Part shown: positions 12,001 through 14,298 of the stretch, piece after piece
How the letters are laid out: each line of letters starts with the position of its first letter
Position numbering within the stretch: position 1 is the stretch's first letter
Virus record (IMG/VR): IMGVR_UViG_2529293045_000016
Reading direction: 5' to 3' (one strand)
Length of the DNA: 14,298 nucleotides
Origin: a virus
Lineage: Duplodnaviria > Heunggongvirae > Uroviricota > Caudoviricetes
Made by a program: the position numbers

Positions 12001-14298
12001 CTGCGACAACCAGCTGCGCGACCAGACCTCCGAATCACTTGAGCAACTTACTCAACAAAATCTGACAGCCTGGATGATTGACGTCATACGCCATGTAATG
12101 AATGGCACGCAGGAGCGGGAATTATCGCTGGCTGAATTATCCTGGTGGGCAGTCTGCAATCAGGTGGTGGACGCATTACCTGAGGCAGTATCGCGTCGCT
12201 CTCTGGGATTACCGGCGGAAAAAATCCGCTCCGTATACCGTGAAAGCGACATCATACCGGGAGAACAGACCGCCACCAGCATACTGAAGCAGCGCACAAA
12301 AAATATTGCGCTACCGCCTCACACCCACCAGCAACAGAACCCACCACAGGAAAAGACGGTGGTCAGCATTGCCGTTGATCCGGAGTCTCCGGAATCCTTC
12401 ATGAAACGACCTAAACGTCGCCGCTGGGTAAATGAGAAATACACACGCTGGGTAAAGACACAGCCGTGTGCGTGTTGTGGTAAGCCAGCGGACGATCCTC
12501 ATCATCTGATTGGTCATGGTCAGGGCGGAATGGGAACAAAATCCCACGATATTTTCACGCTACCGCTGTGTCGGGAGCATCACAACGAGCTTCATGCGGA
12601 TCCGCTGGCGTTCGAAGAAAAGCATGGTTCCCAGGTTGATTTAATTTTTCGTTTTCTTGATCACGCCTTTGCAACCGGCGTGCTCGGGTAAAAGAGGTTA
12701 CTGATGCGTATAGAGTTTGTTTTGCCTTACCCGCCGACGGTGAACACCTACTGGCGACGTCGTGGCAGCACATATTTTGTATCAAAAGCCGGTGAGCGTT
12801 ATCGCCGGGATGTGGCACTTATTGTTCGCCAGCAGCGGCTGAAATTAAACCTGTCCGGAAGGCTGGCGATAAAGATTATTGCAGAGCCACCGGATAAGCG
12901 CCGTCGTGACCTGGACAATATCCTGAAAGCACCACTGGATGCGCTGACGCATGCCGGACTTCTCATAGACGACGAGCAGTTTGATGAAATCAATATTGTG
13001 CGCGGCTAGCTCGTTTCTGGTGGGCGGCTGGGCGTGAAGATTTACAAAATTGAAAGTGAGTGAGCATAAATATGATATACCCGGAAATTACAGGCAAAAG
13101 CGGTGAGCATTTACGCCTGAAAACGCTGGAAAGTGTCTGGATCCAGGGGAAACTGCGTATGTGGGGGCGTTGGTCGTATATTGGCGACGGTAAGACGGGA
13201 AATATGTTCAACCAATTACTGACCTCTAAAAAGCTGACAAAAACGGCAATTAACGAGGCGCTCCGGAGGATGAAAAAAGCGGGTCTGGACAAACCTGAAC
13301 TTGAGGCTTTTTTGCGGGATATGATCAACGGCAATCAAAAAAGCTGGCTGGCACATTGTACCGATTCAGAGGCGTTAATAATCGATAGGGTTATTGGTGA
13401 AGTACTGGCAGGTTATCCCGGGCTGCTCAATGTTCTGAGTCAGCGTTATGTGGGGCGGGGGATGACTAAGCGCAAAATGGCTGAATTGCTGAATGATGCA
13501 CATCCGGAATGGAGTTTAAGAACCTGTGAAAGACGCATTGAGCATTGGCTAAAGGTGGCAGAATTTATTTTGTACAAACCAATGGTTATGGCTTTTGGTA
13601 TAGAGAAAAAAGTTATTGCTTTTTGACGTAAAAACTGCTTCAATTCCGGTAAGCTTCGCAAAGCTGTACCGCGAGGCGAATAGCAGACATGGACATTTGA
13701 AAGAGCCCGCTTTTTGCGGGTTTTTTTATGACTGAAAAACGGCACGGGGCGTTAAACGCGCTGGTGGTTGCTAATACCGGTCTTTCAACTTGCTGGCTTT
13801 TTCGACAAGAGTTATTGGTATGTCACGTTAACCGGAAAAGGGAAAAAGACATGCTAAAACAGCAGGATATGACAGAAACCGCCAGAGTGGTGTTTAATGA
13901 ATTAAGCGTTACCGAACCGGCGACAGTCGGGGAGATTGCGCAGAATACTTACCTTTCACGCGAACGCTGCCAGTTAATACTGACCCAGCTGGTTATGGCG
14001 GGTCTGGCAGACTATCAGTGCGGTTGTTACAGACGCATTCAGTCCTGAAGGCTTTTTATTTGTGGTAAATGGGCGGCTGGTGGGGGGGCGGCACCTGTCA
14101 GTCCTTTGCTTATGTGTTGATGATAATTTACCTTTTGGGGCTATAATTGAGCTAACCAATTGCTAATGAAAGTAAAATTATAATGGCTGTTGTCTGTTCA
14201 GTTATCATGGTTTGCTCCCCAATTAATATTTTTCTTGAAAAGGATACGTTGTCACTTAAGCCAGGCTCAGTCGTTCTGGCCACCAAATGCATCAGGGA

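Follow-up and report, generated by a model that had tools for sequence, protein, structure and literature searches.

A probable one-step amber inactivation of rusA in a defective lambdoid prophage of Escherichia coli O157:H7

The window, that is, the whole stretch of 14,298 nucleotides analysed here (IMG/VR record IMGVR_UViG_2529293045_000016), is a defective lambdoid prophage of Escherichia coli O157:H7, and its rusA gene is interrupted by an in-frame amber codon. It is very probable that rusA was inactivated by one derived C-to-T transition, which converted the CAG codon for Gln102 into TAG, as part of the neutral decay of this degenerate lambdoid prophage. In this explanation, the 54 bases downstream of the stop would be an unaltered remnant owing to the youth of the mutation rather than to continued translation. 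For a prophage in decay, a nonsense mutation of this kind is nothing out of the ordinary.

The amber codon and its intact allele

The rusA gene lies at 12704–13063 on the plus strand. Translation of this interval gives 101 sense codons, the amber codon TAG at 13007–13009, another 17 sense codons, and TGA at 13061–13063, confirming the preliminary description, which had placed the end of the RusA frame at this TAG. The truncated frame (12704–13009, plus strand) appears as a 101-codon entry in the ORF list, matches the Pfam RusA family PF05866, and is annotated by PGAP in strain TR01. The in-frame codons after TAG translate to LVSGGRLGVKIYKIESE and, together with the original TGA, form a stranded 3' end of rusA (13010–13063, plus strand), which specifies the GGR turn and the final beta-strand as judged from translation, conservation, and an AlphaFold2 model. 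The chance that a run of 17 codons stays open is about 0.43 in random sequences of the local base composition. The open run is unremarkable by itself, and it is homology that makes the rusA observation real.

The 101-residue product scores 58.1 bits against PF05866 (cut-off 22.8) and covers profile positions 1–109 of 124. With the stop replaced by glutamine, the restored 119-residue protein scores 59.9 bits, and the end of the match moves from profile position 109 to 123 of 124. The restored protein also aligns over residues 5–116 with the solved E. coli RusA (PDB 1Q8R; E = 1.6e-22). The rusA product is a RusA family member by sequence and gene context. The extension of the Pfam match, the alignment with 1Q8R, and an intact allele differing by one base all bear out the earlier proposal that the 17 codons after the stop encode the conserved RusA C-terminus. 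In RefSeq/PGAP, the truncated rusA of TR01 has the status of a normal CDS (WP_001217444.1) and carries no pseudogene flag, which hides the lesion from annotation-based comparisons.

The intact allele, WP_001217447.1, has 119 codons and departs from the window at a single one of the 360 bases: position 13007 is C rather than T, so that the codon reads CAG (Gln102). In strains 2015C-3101 and 99E2750, WP_001217447.1 is annotated as a 360-base CDS flanked by the same DUF968 and DUF1133 genes. Orthologous prophages in O157:H- 493/89, atypical O157:H7 LSU61, and typical O157:H7 F3113 and PV15-279 carry CAG at codon 102, and 13007 is the only position of rusA at which the window differs from these four strains. 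Over the ~13 kb from 1313 to 14298, 7 substitutions, 13007 among them, and 4 indel events separate the window from the 493/89 prophage. The same prophage is present in F3113 and PV15-279 with a different deletion bordered by IS1203. The CAG form of the 61-mer around the site is also found in strains of O145:H28, O111:H-, O103:H2, O121:H19, and O45:H2; in O111:H2 12A, the same WP_001217447.1 protein is annotated, and the DNA copy differs at 9 bases. Because CAG occurs in the orthologous prophages and the CAG 61-mer in other serotypes, CAG is ancestral and the TAG codon at 13007–13009 (plus strand) is derived. The C-to-T change at 13007 arose within the O157:H7 lineage, and T13007 is linked with two further changes, one synonymous (GAC to GAT, at 13386) and one in the length of a G-run at 14082. 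The finding of CAG in orthologous prophages whose rusA is otherwise identical supports the original suggestion of a recent nonsense mutation.

Both forms of the 61-mer were searched for in 20,395 records from 5,426 complete E. coli genomes. Exact hits were obtained in 260 records for TAG and in 124 for CAG. Together these make 384, which is also how many records match the 360-base rusA gene at 99% identity or more; this fits one allele or the other per such genome. A stretch of 471 bases around rusA occurs with 100% identity in many complete genomes, either of O157:H7 or of strains listed alongside it, among them TR01, 86-24, FRIK944, and 644-PT8. In the public protein collection, the 101-residue form is found on at least 999 contigs and the 119-residue form on at least 1000, both within the same 90% cluster. 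Hundreds of public genomes, as well as RefSeq, thus already contain the amber allele. Its closest counterpart in a sequenced free phage is only 94% identical across the rusA region and has a sense codon at the amber position, and occurrence of the amber allele in free phages was rejected on this best phage record.

RusA conservation and the structure beyond the stop

A search of the protein collection with the restored RusA returned 597 significant relatives, from which the best 120 cluster representatives were analysed. Position 102 is occupied by Q in 63 of these, L in 27, V in 10, and K, E, S, H, G, or R in 14, with the remaining 6 falling short of it. The projected C-terminal end lies at or beyond position 116 (query coordinates) in 109 of the 120; 8 have a projected end short of position 112, either as partial sequences at contig ends or through frameshifted tails (as in P0059, P0090, and P0098). 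Not one of the 120 best cluster representatives stops at residue 101, which rules out a naturally short RusA. This alignment, with a sense residue at 102 in 114 of the 120, agrees with the preliminary description, which had argued against a naturally short protein.

These results and the allele counts bear on the reading that the stop is an artefact, caused either by a sequencing or assembly error at 13007 or by a RusA type that naturally ends at about 101 residues. The 101-residue protein does stand as a normal CDS in RefSeq, and the window differs from its relatives in homopolymer length at 3597 and 14082. However, the exact TAG 61-mer occurs in 260 independently assembled complete genome records, which rules out the sequencing error at 13007 that had been named as a point to check. 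The change at 13007 is a substitution and not a homopolymer difference, and the homologue clusters offer neither an end at 101 nor, in the great majority, anything other than a sense residue at 102. An artefact is practically out of the question. As for the two homopolymers, the window has A6 at 3597 where the other relatives examined have A7, which shifts the frame of a 69-codon hypothetical gene annotated in TR01, 493/89, and LSU61. At the intergenic position 14082, the window has G7 against G8 in TR01, F3113, and PV15-279 and G9 in 493/89 and LSU61. Both differences may reflect genuine slippage or errors of assembly in the source record.

Alignments of 66–67 full-length relatives show at least 90% conservation of G106, G107, R108, and G110 and no variation at I113. 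The stranded segment therefore includes some of the best-conserved positions of the RusA family. Three other E. coli rusA alleles (P0059, P0090, and P0098) have frameshifted tails reading ...GWA or ...GGWG (...GGGWG, ...QVDGWA), which start in the GGR region, suggesting that independent events have repeatedly damaged the 3' end of rusA.

RusA acts as a dimer that cleaves Holliday junctions in a Mg-dependent reaction, and it suppresses ruv mutants. We modelled the protein with AlphaFold2 using the representative P0002, which has 119 residues, is 96% identical to the restored protein with the same numbering, and was run with a 66-sequence alignment. The model (mean pLDDT 83.5, pTM 0.76) has strands at 2–7, 54–60, 93–100, and 109–115, helices at 28–43 and 70–83, and a small hairpin at 17–26. 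It superimposes on the solved RusA structures 2H8C, 1Q8R, and 2H8E with TM scores of 0.86–0.88 over 116–119 columns. The published RusA structures have a four-stranded mixed sheet and two helices, with a sheet-to-sheet dimer interface (PMC1636454). A stop at codon 102 thus costs the protein its GGR turn and, of the four strands of the sheet, the one at 109–115. Catalytic roles have been described for D70, D72, K76, and D91 of E. coli RusA (PMC10956419). Their equivalents D69, D71, K75, and D90 are invariant alignment columns, all upstream of the stop, and are kept in the 101-residue product. The retention of every known catalytic residue and the missing pseudogene flag in PGAP count against inactivation. 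Translation would end after residue 101, leaving the catalytic residues in place and removing the GGR turn together with the fourth strand of the sheet that makes up the dimer interface. The translated product lacks the complete fold of the RusA family, and the missing parts are still encoded in the DNA after the stop. Judging from the model, the most likely outcome is that the 101-residue product is unstable or cannot assemble into an active dimer.

Readthrough, selection, and decay of the host prophage

If UAG were read through by a suppressor tRNA of the host or prophage, or by leaky termination at UAG-C, full-length RusA could still be made, and rusA would be functional. The 17 downstream codons are intact, the conserved C-terminus is still encoded, and the base after the stop is C. 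UAG followed by C is a comparatively weak termination context in E. coli. The 54 downstream bases are identical to the window in all carriers examined, but the allele is one mutation old, which leaves this comparison with no power to detect selection. Because only one mutation separates the allele from its ancestor and the carriers examined show no variation here, the intact downstream codons give suppression no support; they are intact simply through the short distance from the ancestor. No tRNA gene was found in the window. The two tRNAs of the prophage have the anticodons CAT (Met/Ile) and TCT (Arg) and are not suppressors; with no tRNA in the window, these anticodons rule out a prophage-borne suppressor. 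On the host side, we read the metT-glnX cluster of TR01, a TAG carrier, in which glnV and glnX have CTG and glnU and glnW have TTG; the CTG anticodons of glnV and glnX rule out supE for TR01. The supE allele (tRNA-Gln with the CTA anticodon) is present exactly in 155 records, and, among the matches listed, 40 of 40 are K-12 laboratory strains. A suppressor tRNA with the CUA anticodon was thus found neither among the prophage tRNAs, nor in the window, nor at the glnV/glnX locus of TR01. Basal readthrough in the absence of a suppressor would yield merely traces of full-length RusA. The alternative raised in the preliminary description, a gene dependent on amber suppression, finds no support in the anticodons of the prophage and TR01 or in the listed supE carriers, and continued function through readthrough appears extremely unlikely.

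The decay of the prophage extends well beyond rusA. In TR01, the prophage runs through a DinI-like gene, an integrase remnant, recE, dicB, cI/cro-like genes, ydaT, replication genes, hok, DUF968, rusA, the DUF1133 Q-like gene, tRNAs, and lysis, head, and tail genes. In this prophage, frameshifts affect the integrase, of which only part is left, and the portal gene, and recE is truncated. A fragment of YdfR runs directly into one of the capsid, so that the stretch from lysis to capsid is deleted. Functions that a productive cycle requires have already been lost from the prophage in carriers. In the 493/89 prophage, the integrase, recE, and lysis-to-capsid genes that are damaged in TR01 are intact in the stretch examined, which ends before the portal gene; recE, lysis, and terminase genes are intact in both 493/89 and LSU61. 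An intact 119-codon rusA of the WP_001217455.1 type lies beside a different Q gene in another prophage of TR01, CDC#03-98, FORC_044, 86-24, FRIK944, 644-PT8, and others, and, in TR01, the intact and amber copies are ~47 kb apart. Up to 8 rusA-like sequences are found per O157:H7 genome.

The window has several other notable features. The integrase remnant (~728–1313) abuts the truncated recE (1313–2557) at ~1313, both on the minus strand. The prophages of F3113 and PV15-279 cease to resemble the window at this same point (~1313), with IS1203 ~40 bases past the break, and become similar again at 8978; the same prophage has therefore taken different routes of decay within O157:H7. Between the window and TR01, 39 substitutions are clustered at 11668–12265 in the DUF968 gene, the rest of the 14 kb being nearly identical. 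This patch looks like recombination or gene conversion between DUF968 copies of sister prophages, and LSU61 has a similar patch at window positions 5859–6066 in the cro/ydaT region. On the immunity side, the DicF antisense RNA (3198–3249, minus strand; Rfam RF00039, 75 bits) adjoins the dicB and DUF1482 genes. A toxin-antitoxin module of the hok/sok type consists of sok at 10458–10632 on the plus strand (Rfam RF01794, 113.5 bits) and a Hok/Gef CDS at ~10627–10782, annotated by PGAP in TR01. No Rfam family was found within the rusA feature itself.

Upstream of rusA lies the DUF968 (ydfU-like) gene (11642–12691, plus strand; Pfam DUF968, 259 bits), annotated by PGAP as a CDS of 1050 nt in TR01 and 493/89. 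Downstream lies the DUF1133 gene for a Q-like antiterminator (13072–13626, plus strand; Pfam DUF1133, 349 bits, with a weak Phage_antitermQ match), whose start was mapped from PGAP. Together with rusA, these genes are the nin-region module of the prophage. The original TGA at 13061–13063 is 8 nt before the ATG of the DUF1133 gene at 13072, a GTG overlaps this TGA as GTGA, and the amber codon is 62 nt before the ATG. Ribosomes would stop 62 nt upstream at the amber codon, and any translational coupling to the DUF1133 gene would therefore be lost. Between the amber codon and the Q-like gene, we found no promoter-like site, and terminator-like sites are at the level of chance. In induced lambdoid phages, rusA of the nin region is expressed only in the delayed-early transcript.

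A selected truncation might have worked in two ways, either by uncoupling the Q-like gene and damping late transcription or by making the fragment a dominant-negative or altered partner of other RusA copies. The 8-nt spacing with its GTGA overlap, the predominance of TAG (260 records) over CAG (124), and the presence of up to 8 rusA-like sequences in O157:H7 genomes are compatible with such ideas. However, clonal expansion of O157:H7 explains the high frequency of the TAG allele, with which the changes at 13386 and 14082 are linked. The carrier prophage had already lost lysis and head genes, leaving the output of Q of little consequence. The missing strand of the sheet at the dimer interface speaks against stable heterodimers, and the same stop has not arisen in parallel in other lineages. 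We consider selection for the truncation very unlikely, and the lost coupling to the Q-like gene is a speculation that we rank low. Similarly, we give very little credence to a non-neutral amber allele whose 101-residue fragment interferes with or modifies the RusA of other prophages, or which uncouples translation of the Q-like gene. If it were true, the allele would alter inter-prophage recombination or late-gene expression in the O157:H7 prophage pool. T13007 is most likely best read as neutral decay, because several other genes of the prophage are missing or broken and an intact rusA resides in another prophage of the same genomes.

Significance and comparison with known prophages

No paper remarking on the rusA amber lesion was found in the literature, and the main text of the study of the O157 prophage pool (PMC2669165) makes no mention of rusA, amber, or nonsense mutations. 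The specific rusA lesion appears to be previously unremarked. Its biological weight is small; it adds one more case in which a redundant gene of a defective prophage has decayed by point mutation. T13007 is a clean derived marker, separating most O157:H7 from early-branching O157 (493/89 and LSU61) and from some O157:H7 (F3113 and PV15-279). The rusA gene was picked as a predictive feature in an outcome model of O157:H7 (PMC12711010). The rusA signal in such outcome models may reflect lineage-marking alleles such as T13007 and not function.

The gene described here can be compared with its intact allele, with the classical RusA, and with the O157 prophage pool. The intact WP_001217447.1 in the O157 strains, 2015C-3101, and 99E2750 is like the window at 359 of 360 bases and has the same DUF968 and DUF1133 flanks; it differs in having C at 13007, Gln102, and a protein of 119 residues. 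The RusA proteins of the K-12 prophage DLP12 and phage 82 (PF05866; 1Q8R, 2H8C, and 2H8E) belong to the same family and share the RRRDLDN motif and the DD pair, and their genes likewise lie in the nin region, immediately before the late-gene antiterminator. K-12 RusA has 120 residues and intact relatives have 115–126, whereas the product of the window is cut at codon 102 and lacks the GGR turn and the last strand. Like the defective prophages of the O157 pool (Asadulghani et al. 2009, PMC2669165), the prophage bears several inactivating lesions, in the integrase, recE, the lysis-to-capsid stretch, and the portal gene, and, as in that pool, highly similar gene copies reside in sister prophages.
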